Assembly (NCBI GenBank): GCA_001786365.1
Contig: MFWK01000001.1
Coordinates: 1-35,039, forward strand
Source of the DNA: Candidatus Nomurabacteria bacterium RIFOXYD2_FULL_35_12
GTDB taxonomy: Bacteria; Patescibacteriota; Minisyncoccia; Phycocordibacterales; UBA9973
Length of the DNA stretch: 35,039 nt
Direction of reading: 5' to 3'
Position 1 is the stretch's first letter. Every line of letters starts with the position of its first letter. Position numbers and translations under genes: made by a program. The notes beneath the pieces were generated by a model. The model was not told the origin of the DNA. It did no database searches and worked only from the letters and a program-made list of their open reading frames with translations. This document shows, one piece after another, positions 14,141 to 34,877 of this stretch.

Positions 14141-14168
14141 AGTTATAAAGTAAAAAGTTTATAAAGTC
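14132..14168 (+). promoter_or_regulatory. AAAGTT(T)AT tandem cassette abutting start codon
   Basis: agtttataaagttataaagtaaaaagtttataaagtc then ATG 14169. Fills the whole intergenic gap. Confidence 0.6.
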
Positions 14169-14402
14169 ATGAAAAAAATTATTTTAAATTTAAGAAGTCA
14201 GCCCGAACATGTTCGAAGAAATATTTTGCATGTTTTGACAGTTTTTTTTGCTGTCGCCTTATTGCTCATTTGGGTTTTTTCTTTAGGAACAAATTTGAGC
14301 AGTCCGGAAACTCAAGCAAAAATAAATAACGATTTGGAGCCATTTTCTGCATTAACAGCAAACATAGTCGACGGATATTATAGTATTACAGGATCCAATT
14401 AA
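14169..14402 (+). CDS. small membrane protein, hypothetical
   Basis: 77 aa with one TM helix (VLTVFFAVALLLIWVF). Confidence 0.45.
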   Translation: MKKIILNLRSQPEHVRRNILHVLTVFFAVALLLIWVFSLGTNLSSPETQAKINNDLEPFSALTANIVDGYYSITGSN

Positions 14403-14408
14403 TTCTTT

Positions 14409-17456: not shown

Positions 17457-18752
17457 ATGAAAAATTTTCAACTCATAACCGTAATCATATTTATCGCCCT
17501 GGCTATCTTTGGAGTTTTGGTTTTTTCTGGAGCTATACCTTTGGGGAATAATAATGCGCCAGGAAGCCTAGGAACTGTAGTTCTATGGGGAACGGTAAAG
17601 TCTGCTACTATTGCTCCAATTTTACAAGAGTTCAACACTGCCAATCCTACTTTTACAGTTAAATATGTACAAAAAGAAGCAGGAAGTTTTGATTTGGATT
17701 TGTTGGAGGCATTAGCTGGAGGCGTCGGTCCTGATTTGTTTTTCTTGCCTGACGATTTGGCTTTTCATTATTCTAATAAAATTTTCAAGATTCCATTTTC
17801 TAGCCTTTCGCTTGCTTCTTTTAAGAGTAATTTCGCTGGTGCAGGGGATGTGTTTTTGACCAGTACGGGCGCCTTGGCTTTTCCTTTATCTATTGACCCA
17901 CTTATGATGTATTACAATAGGAGCATTCTTGACTCTAGTGGAGTCGTTTCTCCGCCAGTTTTCTGGGATGATTTAGTCGGCCTCGCGTCAAAACTTACAA
18001 AAAAAGATGATACAAATAAAATAATAAAAAGCGCAGTTGCTTTGGGGCACTTTTCCAATGTGAATAATGCCAAAGATATTTTGTCCGCTCTTTTAATGCA
18101 GACGGGAAACCCTATTGTAGTAGAAAAAGACGGAATTTTTGATTCTAGTTTGAATACCAGTACTTTCAATCCAAAATATGACCTCGGTTCAATTTTGAGA
18201 TTCTATACGGATTTTGCCGATCCAAACAAAGAAGTTTATTCTTGGAATAAATCGTTTCCGAATTCTAGTGATGCTTTTTCAGCGGAGAATTTAGCATTAT
18301 ATTTTGGTTTTGCTAGCGAACTACCTTCTCTTGTGAATAAAAATCCAAATCAAAACTTGGGAGTTACTTCATTTCCTCAAATTAAAAATTCTAATTTCAA
18401 ATCAACTATGGCTCATGTGACGGGCATAGCTATCTTATCTTCTTCAAAAAACTTTAACACAGCCTTTACTGCAGCGAGTCTGCTTTCTTCCGGCAATTTT
18501 GCTTCCAAGTTCGCAATTGCGACAGGCACAGCACCTGCGCGTAGAGATTTGTTAAATGTAAAACAGTCCAATGCTTATTCTCCGATTTTCTATAATTCAG
18601 CTCTCTTTGGAAAGAGTTGGCTTGATCCATCACAAAAAGACACAGACAACATCTTCCGAAATATGATAGATGGAGTACTTTCAAACAATATGACTGTAGA
18701 GAGTGCCATTTCCGACGCTAGTAGTAAGTTGGGATTACTTTTGTTAAAGTAG
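17457..18752 (+). CDS. membrane-anchored extracellular solute-binding protein (ABC-type, family 1-like)
   Basis: N-terminal TM anchor. Size and periplasmic-binding-protein-like pattern (VVLWGT..., DLFFLPDD..., YYNR). No partner permease or ATPase in the window. Confidence 0.5.
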   Translation: MKNFQLITVIIFIALAIFGVLVFSGAIPLGNNNAPGSLGTVVLWGTVKSATIAPILQEFNTANPTFTVKYVQKEAGSFDLDLLEALAGGVGPDLFFLPDDLAFHYSNKIFKIPFSSLSLASFKSNFAGAGDVFLTSTGALAFPLSIDPLMMYYNRSILDSSGVVSPPVFWDDLVGLASKLTKKDDTNKIIKSAVALGHFSNVNNAKDILSALLMQTGNPIVVEKDGIFDSSLNTSTFNPKYDLGSILRFYTDFADPNKEVYSWNKSFPNSSDAFSAENLALYFGFASELPSLVNKNPNQNLGVTSFPQIKNSNFKSTMAHVTGIAILSSSKNFNTAFTAASLLSSGNFASKFAIATGTAPARRDLLNVKQSNAYSPIFYNSALFGKSWLDPSQKDTDNIFRNMIDGVLSNNMTVESAISDASSKLGLLLLK

Positions 18753-18755
18753 TAG

Positions 18756-18787
18756 AAAGTTTATAAAGTTTATAAAGTTATAAAGTA
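18756..18787 (+). promoter_or_regulatory. AAAGTT(T)AT tandem cassette
   Basis: aaagtttataaagtttataaagttataaagta then ATG 18788. Confidence 0.6.
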
Positions 18788-19162
18788 ATGCAAAAAATTA
18801 AAAAATTCGTGATTTTACTTTCAATACTTTTTATGCCAGTTGTTTCTCTTGCAGAAAATTTTGTTTTAATACCTTGCAAGGGTGCTGATTGTGATTTTAA
18901 TGGTTTAATGGCTCTTATAAATAATGTAATTCATTTTGTGCTCTTTTATATGGCTGTTCCTATCGCCGCTATTATGTTCTTTTATGCTGGTTTTATGATG
19001 GTGACTTCAGCAGGTAGTTCGGAAAGCAAGACTAAAGCCAAAAATATTTTTTCTAGTGCTGTTTATGGGCTTGTCATTGTGGCAGCCGCTTGGCTCATTG
19101 TTAGGACTATATTATCAATCTTGGGCTATGAAGGGGCTTGGATATTTAATAATTTTAAATAA
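18788..19162 (+). CDS. TrbC/VirB2-like pilin-like protein 1
   Basis: Signal peptide, Cys pair (CKGADC), TM1, short charged loop (SAGSSESKTKAK), TM2. Confidence 0.7.
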   Translation: MQKIKKFVILLSILFMPVVSLAENFVLIPCKGADCDFNGLMALINNVIHFVLFYMAVPIAAIMFFYAGFMMVTSAGSSESKTKAKNIFSSAVYGLVIVAAAWLIVRTILSILGYEGAWIFNNFK

Positions 19163-19178
19163 GGTGTATAATATAATC

Positions 19179-19556
19179 ATGAATTTCATAAAAAAGAGTT
19201 GGTCCAAATTGGTTTTATTGTCTTATGCTTTTTTTATACCTATTATTTCCTTTGCTCAAAATGAGCAGATATCTCCAAATAATCCTTGCACTGCAGGTAA
19301 GATTTGTAACCCAATAAAAACAGATACAATCAATGACTTAATCAAAACTCTCTTAGAGGGAGTTTTGAAAGTGGGTATACCTATCGTTGCTTTGGCTATT
19401 ATTTATTGTGGTTTTCTTTTTGTGTCTGCTCAGGGTAATACAGAAAAATTAACTGAAGCAAAAAAATCTCTTACATATACTTTGATCGGCGCAGCGATAT
19501 TATTAGGTTCATGGGCTATTGCACAGCTTATATCAAACACTGTGCTCGCGCTTTGA
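19179..19556 (+). CDS. TrbC/VirB2-like pilin-like protein 2
   Basis: Same architecture (CTAGKIC; loop SAQGNTEKLTEAKK). Start moved to MNFIKK..., which gives a signal peptide. The ORF-track start 19056 overlaps the upstream gene. Confidence 0.7.
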   Translation: MNFIKKSWSKLVLLSYAFFIPIISFAQNEQISPNNPCTAGKICNPIKTDTINDLIKTLLEGVLKVGIPIVALAIIYCGFLFVSAQGNTEKLTEAKKSLTYTLIGAAILLGSWAIAQLISNTVLAL

Positions 19557-19560
19557 GCAA

Positions 19561-19596
19561 GTAAAAAGTTTATAAAGTTCGTAAAGTTATAAAGTA
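19561..19596 (+). promoter_or_regulatory. AAAGTT(T)AT tandem cassette
   Basis: gtaaaaagtttataaagttcgtaaagttataaagta then ATG 19597. Confidence 0.6.
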
Positions 19597-20370
19597 ATGA
19601 AAAAAATAAAAAAATACGCAATATCTATTTTAATAATCTTCGCACTCATTGGGGTTTTTAGTCCAGTGGTTCAGATTAGTGCAGATTCATTACAAACATT
19701 TGAGCAATCGCAGGATTACCCACCAAGTTATTATGCAAATAATCAACCTTCATCATCCACCTGTACTGCTTTAACCGGCGTGCAAAGTGTGATATGTAAA
19801 GTAAATGAAATAGTTGGTTCAATAGTCCCTGTTTTGATTGCTTTAGGATTAGTATATTTTGTCTGGGGAGTAATTCAGTATATGATAGGCACCGAAGAAG
19901 AGACTAAAAAGGGCGGAAAAGGGAAAATAATTTATGGCATTATCGGTTTGGCTGTTATTGTTGGTGTTTGGGGATTAGTAAATATTTTAAAAACTACTTT
20001 TGTTAATTCAGAAAATCTTTCTGCGCCTACTCTTTCGACTATAACTACAGTTGGGACGAGTGCTAGTTGTGATATTACTAAAACTTCAAAATTTCAAGAC
20101 GTTTTGTGTTATGTTACTAAAATCATCAATAATTCTATCATTCCTCTCATTTTTGCTCTTGCTCTAGCTATGTTTGTCTGGGGTGTGGTACAGTTTGTTT
20201 TGAATAGCGATGAAGAGGTGAAGAAAGAAAAAGGAAGGCAGTTTATGCTTTGGGGGATTATAGCTTTGACGGTGATGATTTCTGTATGGGGTTTGGTGGC
20301 AATATTAGGTGACACCTTTAAGATTAAGACCAATGTCCTTCCGCAAGTTCAACCACCTACAACACGCTAG
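19597..20370 (+). CDS. TrbC/VirB2-like pilin-like protein 3 (internally duplicated, two modules)
   Basis: Two consecutive Cys...Cys / TM / WGV(I/V)Q(Y/F) / acidic-basic loop / TM modules. Confidence 0.7.
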   Translation: MKKIKKYAISILIIFALIGVFSPVVQISADSLQTFEQSQDYPPSYYANNQPSSSTCTALTGVQSVICKVNEIVGSIVPVLIALGLVYFVWGVIQYMIGTEEETKKGGKGKIIYGIIGLAVIVGVWGLVNILKTTFVNSENLSAPTLSTITTVGTSASCDITKTSKFQDVLCYVTKIINNSIIPLIFALALAMFVWGVVQFVLNSDEEVKKEKGRQFMLWGIIALTVMISVWGLVAILGDTFKIKTNVLPQVQPPTTR

Positions 20371-20437
20371 ATTGCATTTGTTTTTATGATACAATTAAAA
20401 GATATTATTATTAGTTATTATTAGGTCGGATTATTAG

Positions 20438-20473
20438 TAAAAAGTTATAAAGTTTATAAAGTTATAAAGTAAA
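20438..20473 (+). promoter_or_regulatory. AAAGTT(T)AT tandem cassette
   Basis: gtaaaaagttataaagtttataaagttataaagtaa, 3 nt before ATG 20477. Confidence 0.6.
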
Positions 20474-20476
20474 TTT

Positions 20477-20881
20477 ATGAAAAAGAAATTAATTGTTTTA
20501 TCAGGTTTTGTTTTAGGTTTAGCTCCTGTCGTGGCTTTAGCACAAGGTACAGTCGGAGGTTGCGCTGGAATCATTACGGGTGGGGATCAAACACTTGTAA
20601 CGGTAATTTGTAAGGTAAATCAAATTATAGGTGTTATCGTCCCAGTTTTGATTGCTTTGGGTGTTGCTTACTTTATCTGGGGTGTCATCCAGTATGTAAT
20701 AGGAACTGATGCGGAGGCAAAATCGTCAGCCATAAATAAGATTATTTACGGCATTATCGGTTTAGCCGTTATAGTTGCTGTTTGGGGACTTGTGCAAATC
20801 TTAACTAGAACTTTCGGAGTTGATAATCCGACAGCAGTTCCTCTTCCGGGTGTTCCTGGTTTTAATGGTTCTGTTCGATAA
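20477..20881 (+). CDS. TrbC/VirB2-like pilin-like protein 4
   Basis: Very close to module 1 of protein 3 (ICKVNQIIGVIVPVLIALG..YFIWGVIQYVIGT...IIYGIIGLAVIV.VWGLV). Confidence 0.75.
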   Translation: MKKKLIVLSGFVLGLAPVVALAQGTVGGCAGIITGGDQTLVTVICKVNQIIGVIVPVLIALGVAYFIWGVIQYVIGTDAEAKSSAINKIIYGIIGLAVIVAVWGLVQILTRTFGVDNPTAVPLPGVPGFNGSVR

Positions 20882-20886
20882 AAATG

Positions 20887-20952
20887 AATCTAGTTAGAGG
20901 TTTACTTACTGGAGTCATTGTTGAAGATTATTAATTTTAATTTCTAAGCGGG
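20887..20952 (+). promoter_or_regulatory. degenerate copy of the CCCGTTAGAA...TTCTAAACGGG leader element
   Basis: 5' aatctagttagagg (20887-20900) and 3' atttctaagcggg (20940-20952), immediately before ATG 20953. Confidence 0.4.
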
Positions 20953-21309
20953 ATGGATTTATTCTCTACAAAAATAGTTTATGGGGCTCAGTCCTTAAAT
21001 CAGTTTATAGCAAATGTTGATAGGGAAATCATAAACCCTCTTATATTATTTCTTTTTGCCCTTGCTTTGGTTTATTTTCTTTATGGACTGTTTGAATTTA
21101 TAGCAAATGGAGCAAATGATGAGAAAAAAACGACGGGGAAGAGTCATATGCTTTGGGGCGTTGTAGGGCTAACCATTATGATGGGTGTTTGGTTTATCCT
21201 AGGAGTAATAATGAGCACCTTCAATATAGAGGGAATAAAGCCAGAAACAGGGGACGTGGAATTGCCTGAATATGTTGCACCTAGTACGAATGGTTTAAGA
21301 CAGAATTAG
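20953..21309 (+). CDS. TrbC/VirB2-like pilin-like protein 5 (no obvious signal peptide)
   Basis: TM / charged loop (NGANDEKKTTGKSH) / TM with MLWGVVGLTIMMGVW, as in module 2 of protein 3. Confidence 0.6.
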   Translation: MDLFSTKIVYGAQSLNQFIANVDREIINPLILFLFALALVYFLYGLFEFIANGANDEKKTTGKSHMLWGVVGLTIMMGVWFILGVIMSTFNIEGIKPETGDVELPEYVAPSTNGLRQN

Positions 21310-21323
21310 TGAGTAAAAAGAAG

Positions 21324-21361
21324 AAAAGGCGGTCGTTCACGAGGAACGGTCCGCCCTTTTC
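21324..21361. terminator. bidirectional terminator at the AT/GC boundary
   Basis: AAAAGGCGGTCGTTC-acgag-GAACGGTCCGCCCTTTT between convergent genes. Confidence 0.7.
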
Positions 21362-21433
21362 TTGTATTGGTCAACAACTTTGTGCTCAGCCAATACGATA
21401 CTAACTGATCCATTTTGCGCTGGTGTCGGGCGC

Positions 21434-22306
21434 TCATCGCACTTTTTGCACGATGACTTTTTTATACACTCGCACCCTGACTGGATGCAGGGGGTCCGGA
21501 GAAACAAACTCTGCTTCGCCGGGCCTGAATGTTTCAGGGGTTGCAGTTCCTTCCCCTTTTCCAGATATTTCTACCCAATTGCAATTGTTATACTTGATTC
21601 GCAATGGGTAGCCATCTGACCGGACCACACATCCCCATCCTACGAAACCACTGCAGGGTGTGTATTTTTCGAACACTTTTTCCAGCATTTCAACCATCTC
21701 TACTTTTTGCTGGACGATGCGTTGTGTTGCTGGTGCCGTAACTGCCGGTGGTGGTTTGTTCCAGCGCTTACCTTGCCAGAACGTGCCAAGTGCATCCCAC
21801 AACGCACCGCCCACTCCTTTTTCTTCCAGGATGGCTCTGGCTTCATCCCGATTCGCCCACGTGGCGGTGTATTTTGGGAACCCCAGCTGGAGGATGAGGA
21901 GGGTGAAGACAACTCCGAGAGCTACTATCACCATTCCACGCTTTTGCTTGATCCAGGCGAACGCAAGCCCGCCTGCAATCAAGGCTGCAATGAGCCCCCA
22001 GATGAACAAAAGCTCTTGGTCCTTTTCTCCTACTGGCCCCAGCGCTCTTTCGATGACACCGAGACTTTTTTGGAGAATGTAGAATATCACGACAGCTATC
22101 GCGAATACTCCAGCTTTTTGGATGCCTTCCAATGCAGTTGTGACTCCATCCTTCACTTGTTTCCAGACTGAGAAGCCTAGATAGAGTGCCATGACGACCC
22201 AGAAGGTCGTAAAGAAGGGAGTTTCCCACAGTGCCTTTAACGCAGCACTGATTGCGATGGCTAAACCGAGTAAGCCTAGCCATGGTTGGTTTATTATGTT
22301 GTTCAT
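21434..22306 (-). CDS. polytopic membrane protein (about 5 TM) with Cys-containing C-terminal soluble domain, no family recognised; G+C-rich
   Basis: 290-codon ORF. TM helices separated by charged loops. ATGA overlap with the upstream ORF. Codon usage is foreign to the flanks. Confidence 0.7.
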   Translation of the reverse strand: MNNIINQPWLGLLGLAIAISAALKALWETPFFTTFWVVMALYLGFSVWKQVKDGVTTALEGIQKAGVFAIAVVIFYILQKSLGVIERALGPVGEKDQELLFIWGLIAALIAGGLAFAWIKQKRGMVIVALGVVFTLLILQLGFPKYTATWANRDEARAILEEKGVGGALWDALGTFWQGKRWNKPPPAVTAPATQRIVQQKVEMVEMLEKVFEKYTPCSGFVGWGCVVRSDGYPLRIKYNNCNWVEISGKGEGTATPETFRPGEAEFVSPDPLHPVRVRVYKKVIVQKVR

Positions 22307-23061
22307 GATTTTTTGAATCCCTTGAATACATTGACGATGGCGTCTTTAATGAACTCAGCTGCTACACTGAGCCACAAGACCTCCATTTCCGTCACTTTGT
22401 CTTTTTCTTTGCTTGCTCCAGTGCCAGTTGTTGTAGAGGCTAGTTTTGCTTTCGCTTTTGCCTCTGCTTTTTTTTCTGCCTCTTCCCACCATCTTCCAAC
22501 ATTGTCCTTAAACGCAAGAAGCAACAGTGGAAGAAGTGCAGCGACCATCCAAAAGGCCGCCTTGCTCCAGAACCAACTCTTCACTGGTTTTGTTGTTGTG
22601 GTTGTGGTCGGAGGATCACGGAGATATTCTGCGATTCCCGTGAATATGGGTTTCAAAATGGTGAGCCCACCATCAGAAGCCTGAATAACCAACCCCTTGG
22701 TTGGCTTCCACACAGACTCAACGACACCCCCTTTTTCAGGGAGGAGAAGTCCTGGTCCCCATCCGTATTGGAGAGCGATGAGGCAGGTAACCACTGTGCT
22801 GGCGAAGAAGATAAACCACCATGTGTCCTCGCCACCTTTTCGGAATAATGCCCAGAAGGCATCTTTTCCACCAAACAGACGAATGGTTCCTGCCCCTACC
22901 AGGAGGCAGATGGTGATCCATCCGATGAACGGGATCCAAAACCCCGAACTAACGAATGTCGTGATTCCTGTCCAATTCTTCACAATGAGGAAGAGGGACA
23001 ACACGGCAAGCAACACGAAGCATATTATTGTTTTGCCTTTCATGTTTTCTTTCTTGCACAT
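22303..23061 (-). CDS. polytopic membrane protein (about 4 TM) with Thr-run and Lys/Ala/Glu-rich tail, no family recognised; G+C-rich
   Basis: 252-codon ORF, first gene of a 2-gene unit behind promoter P3. The alternative start MKGKT... is 6 codons in. Confidence 0.65.
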   Translation of the reverse strand: MCKKENMKGKTIICFVLLAVLSLFLIVKNWTGITTFVSSGFWIPFIGWITICLLVGAGTIRLFGGKDAFWALFRKGGEDTWWFIFFASTVVTCLIALQYGWGPGLLLPEKGGVVESVWKPTKGLVIQASDGGLTILKPIFTGIAEYLRDPPTTTTTTKPVKSWFWSKAAFWMVAALLPLLLLAFKDNVGRWWEEAEKKAEAKAKAKLASTTTGTGASKEKDKVTEMEVLWLSVAAEFIKDAIVNVFKGFKKS

Positions 23062-23075
23062 TTAAGTGCAGATGC

Positions 23076-23095
23076 GTTCCGATTTACATCGGAAC
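23076..23095 (-). other. 5'-UTR stem-loop with GUAA tetraloop
   Basis: GTTCCGAT-gtaa-ATCGGAAC on the minus strand, between P3 and ATG 23061. Confidence 0.55.
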
Positions 23096-23127
23096 TGGTT
23101 TATGAACTTGTCAAAGAGTACGTGTAT

Positions 23128-23157
23128 ATTATATCACACTAATACTTGTTTTGTCAA
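23128..23157 (-). promoter_or_regulatory. promoter P3 (consensus hexamers)
   Basis: Minus strand: TTGACA (23157-23152), 18-nt spacer, TATAAT (23133-23128). Confidence 0.65.
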
Positions 23158-23159
23158 GC

Positions 23160-23190
23160 AAAAAAGCTCCTTAAAATAAGGAGCTTTTTT
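23160..23190. terminator. intrinsic terminator after the 164-aa gene
   Basis: AAAAAAGCTCCTTA-aaa-TAAGGAGCTTTTTT. Confidence 0.85.
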
Positions 23191-23207
23191 GGAAATTTTA
23201 TTACTGA

Positions 23208-23702
23208 TTAGCTGTGTTTAAGTGGAGTTGATTGATACTTTTCAGCACCGCCATAAATCCTTCTTACCAAGACAACTATAAACAAAATTAATATTGCAAC
23301 TATTACCCATTGAATCAATCTTGAAGGAATAAAACTATTTGATCCAAAAACTGCGTTGGCTGCGAGGTTGCTGTTATTTCCAGTGTTTGCATTATTTACA
23401 GATGTGTTTGTGGAATTAGTAGTAGTTGTTTTAGTAGTTGTAGTATTTGAATCTGTAGTATTTGTTTTTACAACCGGTACTGTTTCGTAAGTATTAACAT
23501 ACACAGGGGTAGGGTTGTATTGATTATAATTTTCAGAAGAAATATTTCCTCCACTTACAACATATCCACCATTTCCAACATATCCACCACCATAATACTG
23601 CGCGTTCGTTTTTGATGGTATCATTATCACTCCAAGAGACAAAATGGCTAAAATTACTAAGCTAAAAACGATATTATATTTTATTGTATTTATATTTTTC
23701 AT
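23208..23702 (-). CDS. secreted, C-terminally TM-anchored Gly-motif / Thr-Asn-rich protein
   Basis: Signal peptide (...PSKTNA-QY), YYGGGYVGNGGYVVSGGN motif, T/N-rich stalk, C-terminal TM helix. AT-rich codons. Confidence 0.7.
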   Translation of the reverse strand: MKNINTIKYNIVFSLVILAILSLGVIMIPSKTNAQYYGGGYVGNGGYVVSGGNISSENYNQYNPTPVYVNTYETVPVVKTNTTDSNTTTTKTTTTNSTNTSVNNANTGNNSNLAANAVFGSNSFIPSRLIQWVIVAILILFIVVLVRRIYGGAEKYQSTPLKHS

Positions 23703-23703
23703 C

Positions 23704-23804
23704 CCGTTTAGAAATCATCCCATCTATACATATTATATTTACATAAAGATAGGTAATTTATTGTTATTTTGTAACATTTTCCCGTTATGTAAATTTCTAA
23801 CGGG
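23704..23804 (-). promoter_or_regulatory. closed leader element CCCGTTAGAAAT...ATTTCTAAACGGG-ATG
   Basis: Minus-strand 5' arm 23804-23793 is complementary to the 3' arm 23716-23704, which abuts the start codon. The 5' arm can alternatively form the local hairpin CCCGTTA/TAACGGG (23781-23804). Confidence 0.55.
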
Positions 23805-23819
23805 ATTCATAACATAGAT

Positions 23820-23848
23820 AGTATAGCATATTCAGATGTAAATGTCAA
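23820..23848 (-). promoter_or_regulatory. promoter P2 (consensus -35)
   Basis: Minus strand: TTGACA (23848-23843), 17-nt spacer, TATACT (23825-23820). The 32-nt block is 30/32 identical to P1. Confidence 0.7.
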
Positions 23849-23851
23849 GAG

Positions 23852-23893
23852 AAAAGGCGCCTTTCTGCATGGTTAGCAAATTGGCGCCCTTTT
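23852..23893 (-). terminator. terminator after the lipoprotein-like gene
   Basis: Minus strand: AAAAGGGCGCC, 20-nt loop, GGCGCCTTTTCTCTT, running straight into the -35 of P2. Confidence 0.55.
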
Positions 23894-23919
23894 CGATTTC
23901 GTTGATGTGTTTTGACGTG

Positions 23920-24369
23920 TTAGTAACGTCGGCGGAAGCCACTACCTCCACTGACGACGAATCCACCGTTACCGACGAACCCTCCTCCGCCGTTTCCTCC
24001 ACAATATTGTGGAGGGTGGGACGGTGGATAATACCTACCGCCGTATTGTTTTTGCCAAGCGTAACCTGCGTTCCAAGTTGGCCGACTGTTGGCCTGAACC
24101 TGCACAGTGCCGACCTTCTCGGCGACTTGCAGCTTGTGTCGCTGTATCCCTTCATTGACTGCGAGGCCTGACTTCACTTCCGACTCGGTGTGGGTCGTTA
24201 CCCGACCGTCCGGTCCTATGTCGGTCGTGGTTTTTGTGACCGTTGCCTTCTCGCCTTCTATGTAGGGGAGCGGGCCGGTCTTCTGAGCGATGGCCGTGTT
24301 TCCATTAAAGGCGCAACCTTGCGTCAATGCCAAAACTGCTACTGCGATTATGATACTCACTGTTTTCAT
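23920..24369 (-). CDS. secreted lipoprotein-like Gly-motif protein; G+C-rich
   Basis: Good SD (AAAGGAGAC, 7 nt upstream). Signal peptide ending LALTQGC (lipobox-like, not canonical). C-terminal CGGNGGGGFVGNGGFVVSGGSGFRRRY. Confidence 0.7.
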   Translation of the reverse strand: MKTVSIIIAVAVLALTQGCAFNGNTAIAQKTGPLPYIEGEKATVTKTTTDIGPDGRVTTHTESEVKSGLAVNEGIQRHKLQVAEKVGTVQVQANSRPTWNAGYAWQKQYGGRYYPPSHPPQYCGGNGGGGFVGNGGFVVSGGSGFRRRY

Positions 24370-24398
24370 TGTCTGTCTCCTTTGTTGTTATTGTTGTT

Positions 24399-24450
24399 CC
24401 TGCGTGATAGTAACTTAGAAAATCAATTTTCTAAACTATTATCACACAGG
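24399..24450 (-). other. 24-bp imperfect hairpin in the 5' UTR
   Basis: Minus-strand RNA CCUGUGUGAUAAUAGUUUAGAAAA-UUGA-UUUUCUAAGUUACUAUCACGCAGG. 20 Watson-Crick pairs, 3 G-U pairs and 1 mismatch. The wobbles only work on the minus strand. Confidence 0.6.
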
Positions 24451-24496
24451 AAAGCAAGGAAAATGTAGAAAGAACAATATATCTATTACTTTTAAT

Positions 24497-24525
24497 AGTA
24501 TAGCATATTCATATGTAAAAGTCAA
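24497..24525 (-). promoter_or_regulatory. promoter P1
   Basis: Minus strand: TTGACT (24525-24520), 17-nt spacer, TATACT (24502-24497). Confidence 0.7.
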
Positions 24526-24561
24526 GGACTATTTTAGCCTTTAAAATATGGGTATTTTTTG

Positions 24562-24643
24562 TGGGCAAGGGGGGACTCGAACCCCCACCCCTTACGGGAT
24601 CAGTTCCTAAGACTGAAGCGGCTACCAATTACGCCACTTGCCC
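24562..24643 (-). tRNA. tRNA-Leu (anticodon TAG)
   Basis: rc reads GGGCAAGTGGCGTAATTGGTAG...TCAGT-CTTAGGA-ACTGA, long variable arm, GGGGG-TTCGAGT-CCCCC, CTTGCCC-A. Confidence 0.9.
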
Positions 24644-24844
24644 AAGATATTTTGCACGTTCCTACTTTGTGGTCACAAGTATTTTTCTACTGAAAAATCT
24701 CGCGACCCCGTCTCGGCATCGTCATGCCTATGGCTCGCACAAAATTTTGTGGTCAGGAATATTTTGCTCGTCGACACTCACAAAATTTCACGATCCTGCC
24801 TCGGTTGTTTTTTTGCAGAAAAAACATACCTCCGGCTCGCCCTA

Positions 24845-24880
24845 GTCAGAAAAATTAAAAGCAGTTTTAATTTTTCTGAC
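24845..24880. other. perfect 16-bp hairpin between tRNA-Lys and tRNA-Leu
   Basis: GTCAGAAAAATTAAAA-gcag-TTTTAATTTTTCTGAC. Confidence 0.7.
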
Positions 24881-24884
24881 CTAG

Positions 24885-24957
24885 TGCGCCCACCAGGGAT
24901 CGAACCTGGGACATTCTCCTTAAGAGGGAGCTACTCTACCAGCTGAGTTATGGGCGC
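24885..24957 (-). tRNA. tRNA-Lys (anticodon CTT)
   Basis: rc reads GCGCCCATAACTCAGCTGGTAGAGTA-GCTCC-CTCTTAA-GGAGA-ATGTC-CCAGG-TTCGATC-CCTGG-TGGGCGC-A. Confidence 0.9.
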
Positions 24958-24976
24958 ATATATTTATTCAGTTGTG

Positions 24977-25058
24977 TGCCCGAGGTGGGAATCGAACCCA
25001 CATCCCTTACGGGACACCATTTTAAGTGGTGCGCGTATACCAATTCCGCCACTCGGGC
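24977..25058 (-). tRNA. tRNA-Leu (anticodon TAA)
   Basis: rc reads GCCCGAGTGGCGGAATTGGTA...CACCA-CTTAAAA-TGGTG, long variable arm, GTGGG-TTCGATT-CCCAC, CTCGGGC-A. Confidence 0.9.
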
Positions 25059-25090
25059 ATTTCCTAAAAATATCTTAACATTTTTTAGGG

Positions 25091-25162
25091 AGGCCTGGGG
25101 CGGAATTGAACCGCCGTATATTCCTTTTGCAGAGGAATGCCTTACCACTTGGCTACCAGGCC
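25091..25162 (-). tRNA. tRNA-Cys (anticodon GCA)
   Basis: rc reads GGCCTGGTAGCCAAGTGGTAAGGCA-TTCCT-CTGCAAA-AGGAA-...GGCGG-TTCAATT-CCGCC-CCAGGCC-T. Confidence 0.9.
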
Positions 25163-25174
25163 TTAATCAATATC

Positions 25175-25522
25175 CTACTTTTCTCTTAGCAATTCGTCAA
25201 TTTTTTGTCTGTGCTTTTCTCCTAGGTCAATAGCAATATCTATAAAGGGAATATTTTTTGTCGTCATAATCTTTTTCAAGAATTCTCGCAATTCGGGTCT
25301 TTTGCGTTTTGCAAATTCTAAAGCTGGTTTTTCTTTTTCAGTAGGGAAGACAGTTATAAATATTGTGGCTCGTTTCAAGTCAGGGGAACAAGAGGCTCCC
25401 GTCACAGTGATGAGTGAAGTTCTATTATTTTCTCTTCCTAAAAATTCCGCGGTTAGTTCTTTTAGGTGATTGGCTACTTTTTCCTGCCTGCCGGTAGGCA
25501 GGGCATTTCCTTGATTAATCAT
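25175..25522 (-). CDS. rbfA: ribosome-binding factor A
   Basis: 115 aa. KVANHLKELTAEFL...LITVTGASCSPDLKRATIFITVF matches the RbfA KH-like core. Sits immediately downstream of infB. Confidence 0.8.
   Translation of the reverse strand: MINQGNALPTGRQEKVANHLKELTAEFLGRENNRTSLITVTGASCSPDLKRATIFITVFPTEKEKPALEFAKRKRPELREFLKKIMTTKNIPFIDIAIDLGEKHRQKIDELLREK
25483..25503. repeat. family C copy 2, in-frame in rbfA (gene on opposite strand to copy 1)
   Basis: cctgcctgccggtaggcaggg, identical to the 21-nt core in murD. Translated on the minus strand as LPTGRQE. Confidence 0.75.
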
Positions 25523-25523
25523 T

Positions 25524-27047
25524 TTATTTTTGGGCTATGGAAAATAATTCTATGACGTCACCGGAAGCGACTTCTATTTTTGATTCGAGCATCATACCAA
25601 ATTCTAAACCTTCTTCTACAGTGCTAGTTTTTACTTTACTTTTTTCCAGATTTACGATTTTTCCTCGTCCTATTTCAAATTCTCGGCGCATTATTTTTAC
25701 TGTTCCATTTAAAAGCATTTGGCCTTCGATTACTTTTCCGCCGATTATCTGGCGTTCTTTTGTGCGACTAAAAGCTCGGATTATCTTTGCTCGTCCTGTG
25801 GTTTCTACTGTTTCCACTCTGGGTCTTCTTTTTTCCATTTCTTCTTCGAGCCATTCAGTCATTTTGTAAATGATATCAAAGAAAGAGATGGAAATATTTC
25901 TTTTTTTAGCAATTTCTTCAGCGCTCTTGTCGGCTTTTACGTTGAATCCGATGATGATTGCATTTTCACCATCTGAAATATTTTTTATATCTGATTCGGA
26001 AATCGGGCCCACACCTTTTGTTATAATTTTAAATTCTGCATTTTCTACTTTTCCTTGGCATTTTATTTTTGCTATTTCTTTTTCTATAGCTTCCAAGGAA
26101 CCAGAAACATCGGCTTTGAGCAATATGGGTATTAACTTTTTTCCTGTTTCATCAGAGCTTTTTGTATTTGTATTTTTTATTTCTTTTCCTTTAAAACATT
26201 CCATGTATTCCAAAGCATCTTTTTTATTTTTAAAAGTCTTAAAAGGTGCTCCGACTCTAGGCAATTTATCAAAACCACAAAGGCGGATAGGGGAAGAGAA
26301 AGAAGCATTCTCTATCATTTTTCCTTTAAAATCTTGAATTATGCGGGTAGAAGTTGTACTGTCTTCCACAACTACAGTCATACCTTTTTTTATTGTGCCA
26401 TTTTTTATAAGCAAAGTGGCTTGGATTCCGCGTTTTGAATCTAGGTCTGCTTCTATGACGAAACCTGAAGCATCTTCTTCGGTATTTCCGGTAAAGTTTT
26501 CCATTTCGGATAAAATCAAAATTAAAGACAAGAGATTATCTACACCTGTGCCTGTTTTTGCGGAAATTTCCACATAAGGAATTTTGCCTCCATAATTTTC
26601 TAGATAAACTTCATTTTCTGCCAGTTCATTTTTTGTTTTTTCTATATTTGCATTTGGCTTGTCTATTTTATTTATAGCCACAATAGAAGGTATCTTTGTT
26701 TCAACAATTGTTTTCCATGCTTCAACTGTTTGCGGTTTTACTCCGTCTTCGGCGGAAACAATCAAGATGGCAATGTCGGCAATGAGTGCTCCTCGTTCAC
26801 GCATTTTAGAAAAAGCTGCATGTCCGGGTGTGTCCAAGAATGTGATTTTTTTGTCTTTTCCTTCTTCGTCTTTATGTATAACTTCATAAGCGGAAATATT
26901 TTGAGTAATTCCTCCGGCTTCATTTTCGGTGACATTCGTTTTTCTGATATAGTCGAGAAGGGTGGACTTGCCATGGTCAATATGTCCCATAATTACTACG
27001 ACAGGCGGGCGAGTTATTTTATTTTCTTTTTGTCTTTTTTCTTGCAT
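25524..27047 (-). CDS. infB: translation initiation factor IF-2 (short N-terminus)
   Basis: VVVIMGHIDHGKSTLLD, DTPGHAAF, NKIDK. IF-2 domain order. Confidence 0.95.
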   Translation of the reverse strand: MQEKRQKENKITRPPVVVIMGHIDHGKSTLLDYIRKTNVTENEAGGITQNISAYEVIHKDEEGKDKKITFLDTPGHAAFSKMRERGALIADIAILIVSAEDGVKPQTVEAWKTIVETKIPSIVAINKIDKPNANIEKTKNELAENEVYLENYGGKIPYVEISAKTGTGVDNLLSLILILSEMENFTGNTEEDASGFVIEADLDSKRGIQATLLIKNGTIKKGMTVVVEDSTTSTRIIQDFKGKMIENASFSSPIRLCGFDKLPRVGAPFKTFKNKKDALEYMECFKGKEIKNTNTKSSDETGKKLIPILLKADVSGSLEAIEKEIAKIKCQGKVENAEFKIITKGVGPISESDIKNISDGENAIIIGFNVKADKSAEEIAKKRNISISFFDIIYKMTEWLEEEMEKRRPRVETVETTGRAKIIRAFSRTKERQIIGGKVIEGQMLLNGTVKIMRREFEIGRGKIVNLEKSKVKTSTVEEGLEFGMMLESKIEVASGDVIELFSIAQK

Positions 27048-27082
27048 TTTACTTTATAACTTTCTACTTTATGAACTTTTAA
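27048..27082 (-). promoter_or_regulatory. AAAGTT(T)AT tandem cassette (minus strand) before infB
   Basis: rc reads gtttaaaagttcataaagtagaaagttataaagtaaa then ATG. Fills the gap between the DUF4446-like stop and the infB start. Confidence 0.55.
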
Positions 27083-29670: not shown

Positions 29671-29700
29671 TTGACACATATAGTATAATATAAATATACT
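29671..29700 (+). promoter_or_regulatory. candidate clpB promoter
   Basis: TTGACA (29671-76), 18-nt spacer, TATACT (29695-29700). Confidence 0.45.
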
Positions 29701-29776
29701 TGTCCCGTACTAAATTTTTTTATTACTGGATATAAAGAAAAAGATAAAGATTATTAATTAAAATTTTAGTATCGGG

Positions 29777-32455
29777 ATGCCACCTTTAAACAAATTTACA
29801 ACTAAATCAAAGGATGCTATTAAGAAGGCACACGAGCTCGCTATTGAGCGCGGGGTAAACCATGTTTCTTCACTTCATTTATTGGCAGCTCTTCTACTGC
29901 AAGAAGAAAGTATGGTGAATTCTATTTTAGACAAGTTGGAAATAGACACGATGCTTTTGACCGATAATGTTTTGGAATTGATTGAATTGCCAGAGAGTCG
30001 CAATACCGTTTCTCCTTCTTACCAGATTTATCTTAATCCTGACTTAGCGCAAGTCATAGAGCAATCAGCAAAATTAGCGGAATCAATGAAAGATGATTTT
30101 GTTTCTACTGAGCATCTGTTTATTGCGATCTTGGAAGTAACGAGCGAGGCGCGTGAGACTTTGGCGCGATTTAGAATTCACAAAGATTCTGTGATGAAAG
30201 TTTTAGAAGAATTACGAAGTCAAAATATTACGGATGTTACAGAGCCGAAGAAATTTAAATTGCTTTTAAAATATACTCGTAATTTAACAAAGCTAGCGAA
30301 AGAAGACAAACTCGATCCTGTAATCGGCCGAGACAATGAAATAACTCGCATAATGCAGATTTTGAGTAGAAGGACAAAGAATAATCCTATTTTAATAGGA
30401 GAAGCTGGTACAGGAAAGACTGCAGTGGTGGAAGGCCTTGCGCAAATGATTATAAAAGGGAATGTTCCGGAATCTTTAAAAGATAAAGAACTCGTTTCTC
30501 TGGATTTAGGGCTTCTCGTTGCTGGCACAAAATATCGTGGAGAGTTTGAAGAAAGATTAAAAGGTATTATGAAAGAAATAGAAAGGTCTGATGGAAAAGT
30601 AATTCTTTTTATTGATGAAATACATACTATCGTCGGTGCTGGTGGAGCAGAGGGAACGATGGATGCTTCAAATATGTTGAAACCAGCTTTATCTCGTGGA
30701 GAATTGCGGGCTATTGGCGCTACGACATTGCGAGAATATCAAAAACATATTGAAAAAGATCCTGCTTTGGCTAGGCGTTTTCAGCCTGTTTACATAGATG
30801 AACCAGGAGTAGAAGATGCGATTGCGATTTTGCGCGGATTAAAAGAAAAGTATGAACTTTTTCATGGTGTTCGAATTACTGATGACGCCATTGTGGCTTC
30901 GGTAAATCTTTCTACACGTTATATTACTAATAGATTTTTACCGGACAAAGCGGTGGATTTGATAGACGAAGCTTCTTCTTCTCTTAAAATAATGTTGGAA
31001 AATAAACCACCAGTTTTAGAAGATGCACATAGAAAAATAATGCGTTTGGAAATTGAAAAAGAAGCGTTAAAGAAAGAACAGACAAAAAATCGCGATATAA
31101 AGAACAGATTGAAAGAAGTAGATAAAGAAATAGGTAATTTGCGAGAAAAAACAAAAGAGCTCGAATTAAAATGGCAAAATGAGAAATCTACAGTAGTTGA
31201 AATCAGGGCTATAAAAAAAGATCTTGAAGGTTTGCGTCTAGAAGCAGAGAGTGCGGAAATGCGAGCAGACCTAGCTCGCGCTGCGGAAATACGTTATGGA
31301 AAAATTCCTGCTTTGAAAAAAGATTTAGAAGTAAAACTTCTACGATTAAAAAAATTGCAAAAATCACGTAGAATTTTGAAAGAAGAAATTACTGCTGAAG
31401 ATATCGCCGAGGTTGTCGCTCGTTGGACGGGTATACCGCTTACTAAAATGTTGGAAGAAGAACGCGCGAAACTTGAGAAGATGGAAATTGAATTAAAAAA
31501 GCGAGTTATTGGACAAGAGGAAGCCATCTCGCGCGTATCTGATGTTATTAGACGCTCTCGCGCAGGTATCGGAGATCCAAATAGACCCATTGGGAGTTTC
31601 ATCTTTTTAGGTCCGACTGGAGTCGGAAAGACAGAACTTACAAAAGCTCTTGGGCAATTTATGTTTAATGATGAGAAAGCCATTATCCGTGTAGATATGT
31701 CCGAATATATGGAGAGACACTCAGTTTCAAAACTTGTTGGTTCTCCGCCGGGATATGTAGGTTATGATGAAGCTGGGCAATTGACCGAAGCGGTCAGGCA
31801 TAGGCCTTATGCTGTGATACTTTTTGATGAAATAGAAAAAGCTCATCCGGAAGTTTTTAACATACTTCTTTCGGTTATTGATGAAGGAAGATTGACGGAT
31901 GGTAAAGGTAGAATTGTAAACTTCAAGAATACAATTATTATTTTAACTTCAAATATTGGCTCGCAATTTGTGGAAAAGATGGAAGCTATAGGATTTTCTA
32001 ATAATTCTAAAAAGACAGATTATAGCAATATGAAAGAAAAAGTTCTGGAAGCATTAAAAGATAATTTCCGACCGGAGTTTTTAAATCGTTTGGATGAAAT
32101 TGTTGTTTTTGATGTTCTTTCTGAAGAAGCAATAAAAGGAATTGTTGATTTAAGAATGGAAGTAGTAAAAGATCGCTTGAATAGTAAAGGTATTAATTTG
32201 GAAATTAACGAAGAAGCTTTACTACTCTTGGCAAAAGAAGGTTACGATCCGCATTTTGGCGCAAGACCACTCAATCGTTTGATTCAAAGTAAGATTTTGA
32301 ATCCTGTGGCTTCATATATCATTTCAAATGGAATCAAAAAAGGGGACACAGTCAGTGTGTCAGTAAAGGGGACAGAATTATTGATTGAAACAAAAAAAGG
32401 CCACGCTGGTAAAATCAAAAGCTCAATTCGCATACAATCACGCTCTGAAGTTTAA
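29777..32455 (+). CDS. clpB: ATP-dependent chaperone ClpB
   Basis: Clp_N repeats, two AAA+ modules (GEAGTGKT; GPTGVGKT), and a long coiled-coil middle domain between them. Confidence 0.95.
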
Positions 32456-32787: not shown

Positions 32788-32892
32788 TACTTGTTATTTT
32801 CTAAAAAGTATGTTATTATCAAAACAGTTTGAAAAGGCCTTTGGGGCTTTTTTCTTTCATTAAACAAAATTTATTTATATAACAAAATGGAT

Positions 32893-33011
32893 CCCGTTAG
32901 AAGCCGCGATCGCAATACAAATATAAACAAAAATATGAAAACAAATATTGGAAAAATTAATAACATAATATATCAGACACGCGAGTTGATCGCGATCTGC
33001 TTCTAAACGGG
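32893..33011 (+). promoter_or_regulatory. closed leader element CCCGTTAGAAGC...GCTTCTAAACGGG-ATG before typA
   Basis: 5' arm 32893-32904 pairs with 3' arm 32999-33011, which abuts ATG 33012. An inner CGCGATC/GATCGCG extension is present. Confidence 0.55.
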
Positions 33012-34877
33012 ATGGAAATTAGAAATATAGCTATTATAGCTCACGTGGACCATGGGAAGACTACCTTGACCGATGCTTTGATGAAGCAAAATGGTGGGCT
33101 TCAAGATGAGGGAGTCTCAATGGATTCAAATGCTTTGGAAAAAGAGCGTGGTATTACTATTTACTCAAAAAATACTTCCATAAATTACAAAGACACTAAA
33201 ATAAACATTGTAGATACGCCCGGACACGCGGATTTCGGCAGCGAGGTGGAACGTGTTTTGCGCGCAGTAGATTGCGTGCTTTTGCTCGTGGATGCAGTCG
33301 AAGGCCCAATGCCTCAAACCAGGTTCGTTTTAAAAAAGTCTTTGGAGTTAGGGCAAAAGCCAATTGTGGTTATAAATAAAATAGATAAACCTGCTTCTGA
33401 TCCACATAGAGTTCATGAAGAAATTTTGAACTTATTTTTTGAATTAGGAGCTTCTGAAGAGCAAGCGAATTTTGAAACTATTTATGCTATTGGACGACAA
33501 GGGGTAGCTTTTAAAAAATTAGGTGATGATTCAAAAGATTTGTCTCCTCTTTTAGATTTAATTTTAGAAAAAGTTCCAGACGCAAGTAAGTGTCAAGGAC
33601 TGTCCTTGACAAGTATGTCAAAGACCGTCTTTGACACTAAGAAAATGTCTGCGCAAGTTTTCAATCTTGGTTATGATAATTTTCTAGGCAGAATGGCAGT
33701 AGCTAGAATTTATTCCGGTACAATTTTTTCCGGAAGTAATATTTTTATAAAAGGAGAGAGGGAAATACGCAGTGGCAAAGTAACAAAACTTTTTACTTTT
33801 GAAGGAATAAACAGAAAAGAAGTGGAAAATGCGACTTCTGGAGACATAGTTCTCTTGGCTGGAATTCCAGACATATATATAGGTGAGACATTATGTGAAG
33901 ACGAGAGCGTAGAACCTTTGCCTCACATTGCTATTGATGAGCCGACTCTTTCTCTTAACTTTTTAGTAAATGATTCTCCATTTGCCGGCAAAGAAGGAAA
34001 GTTTGTTACGTCCAGACAAATCAAAGAAAGACTAGAAAAGGAGTTAGAGATAAACGTCGGACTAAAAGTTGATTTTACTCCGGATCAGGGTGATAAAAAG
34101 TCAGGTCCGAGTTTCTTTAAAGTTTATGGCCGTGGAGAACTGCACATAGCGATACTTTTGGAATATATGCGCCGAGAGGGATTTGAAATGCAAGTCTCTC
34201 AACCGGAAGTTATCATAAAAGAAAAAGATGGAGTGAGTACAGAGCCATATGAAGAGCTGGTTATTGATGTTCCTATGGAGTCTTCTGGTGGAGTTATAGA
34301 AAAGATAGGAAAAAGACGAGGAATAATGAAAGATATGATGGAAAAAGAGGGTATAGCTAGGATTACTTTTGACATACCGACTCGTGGACTTTTGGGTTAT
34401 CGTGGTGAATTTATTATAGATACAAAAGGCGAAGGCATTATGTCTTCTAGAGTCACAGGATTTAGAGAATATGCTGGAGAAATAAAAAGACGAGAGTATG
34501 GTGCGATGACTTCTATGATAAATGGCAAGGCAGTTGCCTTTGCGCTTGCAAATTTACAGGAACGTGGTATACTTTATGTAAGTCACGGTACTGAAGTTTA
34601 TGAAGGTATGGTGGTGGGTAATGTTTTGAAGGGTGATGATATGTCAGTGAACCCTACAAAAGGAAAACAGCTTACCAACATGCGTGCTTCTGGAACTGAT
34701 GAGGCCATAGTTTTAAATCCTGTATTTTCTTTGAATATTGAAAGAGGTTTGGAAGTGATGAATGAAGATGAGTATTTGGAAATCACTCCAAAATCAGTTA
34801 GACTTAGAAAGAAATATCTAACTGACCTTGATAGGAAAAAGCATTTCGCTGCACAAATTGATAAAGAAAAAAAATAA
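33012..34877 (+). CDS. typA: translational GTPase TypA/BipA
   Basis: [30 protein letters not shown]-like domains with the BipA-type C-terminus. Confidence 0.93.
33591..33636 (+). repeat. tandem pair of perfect 10-bp-arm palindromes, family E, in-frame in typA
   Basis: TGTCAAGGAC-t-GTCCTTGACA, agta, TGTCAAAGAC-c-GTCTTTGACA. Translated (K)[16 protein letters not shown]. Confidence 0.75.

Follow-up and report, generated by a model that had tools for sequence, protein, structure and literature searches.

Our analysis concerns a 35,039-nucleotide stretch of DNA from Candidatus Nomurabacteria bacterium RIFOXYD2_FULL_35_12 (contig MFWK01000001.1, positions 1 to 35,039), referred to here as the window, and the "closed leader" that precedes its typA gene, in which an inverted repeat encloses the upstream region and the second arm runs directly into the ATG. 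We conclude that this leader is very probably one copy of a large miniature-transposon family in Patescibacteria that inserts at start codons and rebuilds the ATG. The family is a new and abundant family of MITEs (miniature inverted-repeat transposable elements), unusual in that its members target start codons and regenerate them. The helix of the closed leader is the two inverted repeats, and the fusion to the ATG is a matter of junction geometry. A first-pass annotation of the window had described the arms and had considered a riboswitch, thermosensor or attenuator, with a MITE-like element as its second choice. That second choice is the correct one, as seen from target duplication, filled and empty orthologous sites, at least 121 copies, a tandem insertion and exact 4-bp repeats around copies away from gene starts. 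With respect to the defining features of MITEs, as taken from PMC3184786, the family fits all testable ones other than an identified parent: its members are small (60-125 bp, where the limit is about 400 bp), lack a transposase gene, have terminal inverted repeats and target duplications, are dispersed in many copies and show mobility. Literature searches on the motif strings, on MITEs and on leaderless translation in Patescibacteria found no description of the family.

Copies in the window and their empty counterparts

The window contains four copies, located at typA, at a gene for a 164-aa protein, at pilin-like gene 5 (a relic) and at clpB (a variant), and the arm sequences that the first-pass annotation had given for these genes all lie where it had placed them. 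A pattern consisting of both arms plus the ATG matched twice in the window versus 0.00 matches expected from 100 shuffles, and CGGGATG occurs five times versus 1.65 expected. A fifth copy, of the typA type, is found just outside the window, about 10 kb rightwards, at rpsM, where it adjoins the gene for ribosomal protein S13 (ATGAGAATACTT…) at ~21520-21643 of L001, which is from the same organism (L-numbers denote the retrieved related and metagenome loci, 1.4 Mb in total). This genome has five copies within about 45 kb, and a copy is present at ~1/9 of the gene starts in this part of it.

At typA, the 121-bp element (T-CCCG…CGGG-A, with an A-rich interior) occupies 32892-33012 on the plus strand and belongs to a subfamily of 57 copies. 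Its 5' arm is CCCGTTAGAA (32893-32902) and its 3' arm, TTCTAAACGGG-ATG, covers 33001-33014; the full inverted repeats extend over about 32892-32913 and about 32990-33012, with a single extra A at 33006. Immediately upstream (32887-32891) are the ancestral ATG (32887-32889) and the left copy of a TGGA duplication (32888-32891). The working start (33012-33016) is composed of the element's terminal A (33012) and the right TGGA (33013-33016), and the TypA/BipA domains start at residue 2 of the product read from it. The ancestral ATG now starts a 39-codon upstream open reading frame (ORF), the stop codon of which is a TAA within the 3' arm.

The element at the 164-aa gene is on the minus strand (23702-23805, read from 23805 to 23702), measures 104 bp and belongs to a 17-copy subfamily. 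Its 5' arm lies at 23804-23795 and its 3' arm at 23713-23703, continuing with the ATG to 23700. The ancestral ATG (23810-23808) and the left TGAA duplication together occupy 23806-23810, and the working start joins the element's terminal A (23702) to the right TGAA copy (23698-23701). The ancestral ATG sits 9 nt past the -10 box of an 11/12 promoter match, TTGACA-17-TATACT (23848-23820), and from this spacing it was probably the 5'-terminal AUG of a once leaderless mRNA. Distant homologues of the gene (L021, L017) are leaderless, with TTGAC[AT]-17-TATACT-6-ATG, which identifies the window's upstream ATG as the ancestral start position.

A degenerate third copy had been reported before pilin-like gene 5, and it is indeed there (TTCTAAGCGGG-ATG, 20942-20955). 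The relic spans 20884-20955 on the plus strand and consists of the old ATGAA (20884-20888), the element (20889-20953) and the working ATG (20953-20955); its 5' arm has decayed to CTAGTTAGAG, and its 3' arm is the TTCTAAGCGGG at 20942-20952. An intact 66-nt copy is present in L126 at the orthologue of this gene (MDLFSTK…). At typA, the 164-aa gene and pilin-like gene 5, the 5' arm is preceded by ATG-N-N-T (ATGGAT, ATGAAT and ATGAAT, respectively), and the NN after the upstream ATG are the first two bases of the gene's codon 2.

For clpB, the first-pass annotation had recorded a CGGG-ATG (29773-29779, plus strand). The motif is present, but it is more than a coincidence of these letters and belongs to a full copy of a sister subfamily. 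This class II variant (29698-29777, plus strand) reads ACTTGT followed by CCCGTACTAAA…TTTAGTA-T-CGGG and the A of the ATG. It differs from the typA type in arm sequence and in one extra base beside CGGG, the plan being the same, and it has neither an upstream ATG nor a detectable duplication. Members of the clpB-type subfamily also occur at other genes in L136, L166 and L184. A promoter-like site, TTGACA-18-TATACT (29671-29700, plus strand), which is an 11/12 consensus match only, overlaps the 5' end of the clpB copy.

Related genomes provided the empty counterparts of these sites. Contigs that encode the window's TypA came from at least 41 assembly blocks, groundwater being the main source, and the nearest named genomes are metagenome-assembled genomes of Candidatus Nomurabacteria, Paceibacterota and other Patescibacteria. 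Of the related typA loci, about 26 in number, L020 alone (80% TypA identity) has a start-codon element, a diverged copy. The typA site is empty in about 24 relatives, and the closer ones (83-87% identity) read …aaaaatATGGAAATT with nothing inserted. Removal of a 120-bp element and one ATGGA from the window's typA region produces a base-for-base alignment with nine empty sites, and this excision puts the old ATGGA in register with the ATGGA at the typA start of the nine relatives. The empty sites and the window have in common a promoter, a hairpin, an A-rich spacer, ATGGA and AATTAGAAA. Similarly, the clpB start is empty in eight relatives.

The promoter-like site upstream of typA is TTGTTA-17-TATTAT with TG (32791-32819, plus strand), and ~12 nt after it a GGCC…GGGC hairpin is followed by a T-run (32831-32853). 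This promoter-hairpin arrangement is conserved in most Nomurabacteria-like genomes (L008-L019, L021, L024, L032), and the hairpin could be a tiny RNA, a typA attenuator or the terminator of the upstream tRNA. The typA 5' untranslated region (UTR), which had been thought to begin at the 5' arm, probably starts upstream of it, at the conserved promoter.

Target duplication, rebuilt start codons and dispersal

The first-pass annotation had proposed a wider search for further copies. JGI metagenome contigs were scanned with the pattern of both arms plus ATG, and at least 119 metagenome stretches with at least 121 distinct copies were found among the matches listed. These copies are 63-125 bp long, with one of 167 bp, and each listed copy adjoins the ATG of a real ORF. 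The genes have unrelated functions and include those for ribosomal proteins L22, S18, S13 and L35, LepA, TypA, aminoacyl-tRNA synthetases and pilins. Only the termini are common to all subfamilies (T-CCCGTTAGAA… and …TTCTAA(A)CGGG-A, imperfect inverted repeats; [TC]CCCGTTAGA…TCTAACGGG[AG] in degenerate form without the ATG), the interiors being unrelated between subfamilies. The typA-type subfamily (115-122 nt, 57 aligned copies), in which the inverted repeats reach about 21 paired positions, and the 164-aa-type subfamily (about 103-107 nt, 17 copies) are accompanied by several others, the short ones measuring 63-81 nt.

Dispersal is apparent from several features of these copies. The upstream flanks are non-homologous host DNA between copies, and in DNA contigs the element region is marked by about 3x depth, contig breaks and many divergent flanks. 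Orthologous start codons of S18 and L35 are held by different subfamilies in different genomes. In L161, a single start codon is preceded by two elements of different subfamilies arranged in tandem (about 1150-1510 of the reverse complement, minus strand; ATGAA-T[A]…CGGG-ATGAA-T[B]…CGGG-ATGAA), so a rebuilt site can be hit again. We consider the element a ready marker for strain-level population genetics of uncultivated Patescibacteria.

The repeats on either side of the element were then compared across the family. Among copies with an intact upstream ATG, the NN are the same on both sides in 93 of 98 (permutation mean 49, p≤1e-4), and the sixth position matches at background level only (37/120). 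The upstream ATG is mutated in about 18% of copies. Copies with the same termini that lie away from gene starts (in L134, L101, L120 and L166) have the ends C…G, and exact 4-bp repeats flank six of eight of them (TGAA, TTGA, TTCA, TAAA, TAAA and TTTA), the base before the left repeat being unmatched. Read likewise, copies of the start-codon class are T-CCCG…CGGG-A elements between duplicated TGRR, the duplication being 5 bp in two cases. Comparison of these junctions shows that the element inserts with a 4-bp, occasionally 5-bp, target duplication and with the A|TGRR of a start codon context as its strongly preferred target. It also shows that the old ATG stays upstream and that the working ATG consists of the element's last A and the duplicated TG.

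The target preference is visible in the occupied genes themselves. Codon 2 begins with RR at about 96% of occupied starts versus 46% of 507 background genes, and with AA at 67% versus 22%; beyond this, the flanks of occupied starts do not differ from those of unoccupied ATGRR starts. A preference for leaderless genes was considered and rejected: a -10-like box is found at 31% of occupied and 30% of background starts, and upstream composition is the same.

This junction geometry explains the fusion to the ATG, the presence of an upstream ATG and the conserved orientation of the junction. Copies persist before essential genes because the rebuilt ATG-RR start leaves the coding sequence untouched. 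In terms of transposon biology, a geometry that makes insertion at a start codon harmless is a route to persistence in tiny genomes with little intergenic DNA. With regard to mechanism, we propose that a transposase would act in trans and make staggered cuts of 4-5 bp, and that selection would remove insertions at the many intragenic TGRR sites as well as those in the wrong orientation; a directional mechanism is also possible.

The first-pass annotation had observed that the orientation relative to the gene is fixed, and this extends to the family, none of 141 copies being reversed at an ATG. Absolute orientation on an asymmetric target, together with strong specificity for ATGRR and a regenerated site that can be targeted again (the L161 tandem), would also be expected of a site-specific (tyrosine or serine) recombinase that acts via a small circle with a crossover core of (A)TGRR. 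The flanking repeats would then be two copies of the core, and no DDE transposase would be involved. We consider this improbable, since the off-start repeats vary and would need different cores, repeats of 4-5 bp combined with inverted repeats are typical of staggered-cut transposition, and no recombinase gene is linked to any copy examined.

Identical 5-nt sequences on either side of a compact hairpin also bring to mind translational bypassing, as in phage T4 gene 60, with the AUG-NN…AUG-NN pairs serving as take-off and landing sites. However, the downstream AUG can initiate alone, there is no stop after the take-off codon and no nascent peptide at codon 1, and intact genes lie behind copies in which the upstream ATG is mutated or, in class II, missing. 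Moreover, target duplication fully accounts for the repeats, and we regard bypassing as extremely unlikely.

A few related loci deserve mention. No other CCCG…CGGG-ATG leader was found at a real gene start in about 450 kb of related genomes. L026, a distant Nomurabacteria locus (64% TypA identity), carries a sister family with arms CCCGTGAGA…TCTCATGGG, flanked by AC…GT, at 14311-14404 and 18116-18208 (minus strand). The orthologue of the window gene at 20477 has a 164-aa-type element in L092, L093, L113 and L126, and the window has the TTATAAAGT motif (discussed below) in its place. The sole contig of a viral collection with a copy, IMG/VR L206 (147-251, minus strand), reads TTGACA-17-TATACT-8-ATGAA, element, ATGAA, and the small gene that follows (MNTSTISTKTVLNIKIDKKIKEEAQKLAKSLGL…) may encode a ribbon-helix-helix antitoxin.

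The closing helix in RNA and DNA

The closing helix is contained in the minimum free energy (MFE) fold at typA (z -4.1), the 164-aa gene (z -4.5) and clpB (z -2.2), and it is not in the MFE fold of the pilin-5 relic (z -0.7). In the 57 typA-type copies, 98.7% of helix cells are paired. Covariation had been suggested as a check on the proposed RNA structure, and compensatory changes do occur at four helix pairs of the typA-type copies, but these changes track subfamilies and are accompanied by no G·U excess. The latter was determined with a strand test, in which G·U is tolerated in the sense RNA only and A·C is the mirror pair; in the two registers, the ratios of G·U to A·C are 15:12 and 7:14. 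With no RNA-specific G·U bias, the covariation of the helix probably comes from inverted repeats that were inherited as DNA. On the sense strand the interiors are rich in A, and this is also true of 21 perfect-arm copies that were not selected by the pattern.

Searches for a known RNA were negative. A scan of the whole window at Rfam gathering thresholds detected tRNAs only, a permissive scan (E≤5) over all four window copies gave no match on the copies, and known riboswitches, leaders and small ribozymes are ruled out by these scans. A riboswitch or thermometer should have a conserved structured core and a coherent gene set; here the termini alone are shared, the genes are diverse, and the element is missing at orthologues in close relatives. 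Upstream ORFs have a median of 16 codons and stop before the main ATG in 96 of 98 cases, as composition predicts, and the ATG-to-ATG distance modulo 3 is spread 45/31/22. A peptide gene was also rejected: a frame of 23-39 codons runs to the arm's TAA in part of the typA-type subfamily, and frames and lengths are not conserved family-wide. Taken together, the helix, ORF and Rfam results would fit inherited transposon ends and not a selected RNA sensor. A riboswitch, thermosensor or attenuator is thus not supported as the primary identity of the element, given interiors that differ, unrelated genes, no Rfam match and no G·U excess.

Automatic gene callers annotated the element's 39-codon frame as a gene in two of the retrieved loci (L002:9876-9995 and L003:7944-8063), and gene calls on the element's upstream frame are likely artefacts throughout these genomes. 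For annotation, this means that spurious ORFs of 20-40 codons are to be expected and that start codons may be misplaced.

Several observations weigh against insertion of a start-codon-targeting transposon as the whole account. The 1.4 Mb of retrieved loci yielded neither an autonomous parent nor a transposase with these termini, all long terminus pairs in them being neighbouring short copies. L134, which is rich in off-start copies, has glycosyltransferase and glycoside phosphorylase genes and no transposase, and a scan of viral contigs for a parent returned one ordinary copy only. In assembled contigs, neither an empty allele within a population nor a clean 125-bp skip was found. Most copies were retrieved by the CGGG-ATG pattern, and start-codon exclusivity must therefore be judged from a smaller number of unbiased copies (those of the window itself, secondary copies and the 21 perfect-arm copies), of which about 17 adjoin a start codon and about 7 lie elsewhere. 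The strict orientation described above is unusual for a cut-and-paste transposase on a short target, and either selection or directionality of the mechanism is required to account for it. In class II copies, that of clpB included, CCCG is invariably preceded by ACYTGT, and an upstream ATG and a recognisable duplication are both missing; the UGU of these copies could form only wobble pairs with the AUG. In the outer CCCG:CGGG quartet of the start-abutting copies, all four single deviations are G·U and none is A·C, the cases being few. Lastly, 46 of 120 copies, versus 8.9 expected, have an internal ACGGG that could pair with their 5' arm. The motif is one-sided, at 20-30 nt from the 5' end, and its mirror is present in two copies only. 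The outer-quartet wobbles and the one-sided ACGGG hint at an RNA-level constraint that would not be predicted for purely selfish DNA.

The internal ACGGG corresponds to the alternative 5' hairpin that the first-pass annotation had drawn for the 164-aa gene, where TAACGGG (23787-23781) is able to pair with the 5' arm. Such a hairpin is absent from most typA-type copies. Based on this alternative fold, the elements could be functional mobile leaders of translational control: the helix would hide the AUG (OFF), the 5' hairpin or melting would free it (ON), and the host would retain copies for regulation, for example as an RNA thermometer at clpB, which encodes a heat-shock protein. The presence of the closing helix in three MFE folds, the excess of one-sided ACGGG, strict orientation with an A-rich sense strand, the wobble-only UGU of class II and the 4:0 ratio of G·U in the outer quartet all agree with such leaders. 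In contrast, the genes are unrelated to one another (ribosomal proteins, GTPases, pilins and aminoacyl-tRNA synthetases), unrelated interiors leave no conserved ligand pocket, the inner helix has no excess of G·U over A·C, the same genes in close relatives lack the element, Rfam gives no match, and the pilin-5 relic has lost the helix with its gene still intact. We therefore think it rather unlikely that control of translation is what the elements are for, and favor the miniature transposon, for which a secondary regulatory RNA role of the closed leader is possible.

After each insertion, a gene that was leaderless or had a short leader carries an upstream AUG and, at its start codon, a hairpin of -17 to -31 kcal/mol. 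In mRNA, the transposon would place an upstream ORF, short and not conserved, before the gene, together with a stable hairpin touching the AUG. Expression might then be achieved in one of two ways. Ribosomes that initiate at the old AUG may open the hairpin and then initiate again; alternatively, a competing 5' hairpin (through kinetic trapping) or nuclease processing may free the new AUG.

Nuclease processing can also be taken as an explanation in its own right, in which the hairpin serves as a signal for RNA processing. Cleavage of the ~20-bp helix by a double-strand-specific RNase would leave a very short leader or none, the resulting mRNA would be translated efficiently in this organism, and the insertion would be phenotypically silent. 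This is compatible with a genome that lacks Shine-Dalgarno (SD) sequences and has many leaderless-looking genes, with the 21-bp closing helix of the typA type, which has small bulges, and with the tolerance of copies at highly expressed essential genes. However, metatranscriptomes from the same samples yielded no contigs of this organism, the helices of the short subfamilies (63-81 nt) are much shorter, and the nuclease and its specificity are hypothetical for this lineage. We give this explanation little credence.

A broader and speculative proposal, to which we assign a low probability, is that the family is a mobile, self-healing translation-initiation cassette specific to Patescibacteria that lack SD sequences and are prone to leaderless transcripts. 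Such a cassette would home to start codons, rebuild the ATG and impose a switchable closed leader. Switching might be achieved by competition between the closing helix and the 5' hairpin, by removal with a nuclease or by re-initiation from the old AUG. If true, translational control would spread horizontally from gene to gene, including to heat-shock clpB and ribosomal protein operons.

Known mobile elements and start signals of the host

Bacterial MITEs such as Correia/CREE of Neisseria, RUP, ERIC and Nezha are non-coding and about 100-160 bp in length (PMC3184786; Delihas 2011). Similar to these, the present elements have inverted repeats that fold to a long hairpin, make duplications and are dispersed in copies located 5' of genes, where MITEs are co-transcribed. 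Known MITEs, in contrast, duplicate TA or other short targets in intergenic DNA, and none is described in that review as entering a start codon and rebuilding it from its own terminal base. The start-codon target, the terminal A that completes the ATG and the strict orientation distinguish the family from Correia, RUP and ERIC, and unlike known MITEs it sits at essential genes of a reduced-genome lineage without SD sequences.

The same review describes two repeats, REP2 of Neisseria and IR of Borrelia, that likewise lie just upstream of many genes, end in an ATG that is used and form stem-loops in the 5' UTR (PMC3184786). However, a promoter and a ribosome-binding site are part of REP2 and IR themselves, for which terminal inverted repeats plus target duplications are not described; our family has no ribosome-binding site and supplies only the A of the ATG. 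Flanks that are not homologous, a -10-like box at background frequency (31% versus 30%) and the lack of SD sequences argue against a REP2-type repeat. The Rickettsia palindromic elements (RPEs; PMC3184786) are also small, palindromic mobile repeats that touch coding sequence in a reduced genome; RPEs insert in frame within ORFs and are translated as part of the protein, whereas our elements lie outside the ORF, the start of which they duplicate. With RNA thermometers and translational riboswitches, the elements share a start codon at the base of a helix and a possible alternative fold. They differ in having no sensor core and no shared gene function, in their patchy presence at orthologues and in a helix that is inherited as transposon ends.

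Three further systems were rejected. An integron attC site has the GTT/AAC boxes in an order that does not agree with ours, the Xer/dif analogy was dismissed on sequence features, and IS200/IS605-derived PATEs, which have no inverted repeats, no duplication and a fixed tetra- or pentanucleotide target, are ruled out by the inverted repeats and the variable 4-5-bp duplications.

With respect to a parent, members of the IS1380 family make duplications of 4-5 bp and have ends that begin with CC, both of which would fit our CCCG termini and 4-5-bp repeats, and we know of no start-codon preference among them. An IS1380-type element is a candidate parent as a lead only. IS1247, of this family, is listed with a 5-bp duplication and short inverted repeats of 16/13 bp (PMC3281130, Table 2).

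The first-pass annotation had pointed out that the copies lack an SD sequence. This is true, but it is uninformative, as no gene in the window has one. Many genes of the window have a TATAAT-like box 6-9 nt before the ATG and look leaderless, and in related metagenome loci a T precedes the ATG at about 56% of gene starts. Ribosomal protein and translation GTPase genes tolerate the element, which bears on how initiation takes place in a lineage without SD sequences.

A second motif, TTATAAAGT, occurs in two or three tandem copies (as AAAGTTTATAAAGTTATAAAGTA) directly before the ATG of at least five genes, namely three pilin-like genes, a gene for a small membrane protein and infB. The tandem sites are at 14135-14167, 18761-18786, 19570-19595 and 20445-20470 on the plus strand and at 27051-27074 on the minus strand. 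With one mismatch or fewer, there are 44 matches versus 25 expected, and none of 100 shuffles reached 44. DNA contigs join position 20470 to 27050 via this motif, as expected of a repeat, and its role may be that of a promoter or of a signal for translation initiation in place of the SD sequence.

The pilin-like genes are part of a run of at least five small T4SS_pilin (PF18895) genes with signal or transmembrane N-termini (18788-21309, plus strand), and runs of this kind are typical of Patescibacteria. Finally, the space between the 164-aa gene and a 252-aa gene contains a perfect consensus promoter, TTGACA-18-TATAAT (12/12; 23157-23128, minus strand), and, in back-to-back arrangement with it, a terminator-like hairpin of 15 bp (plus strand, 23159-23191).

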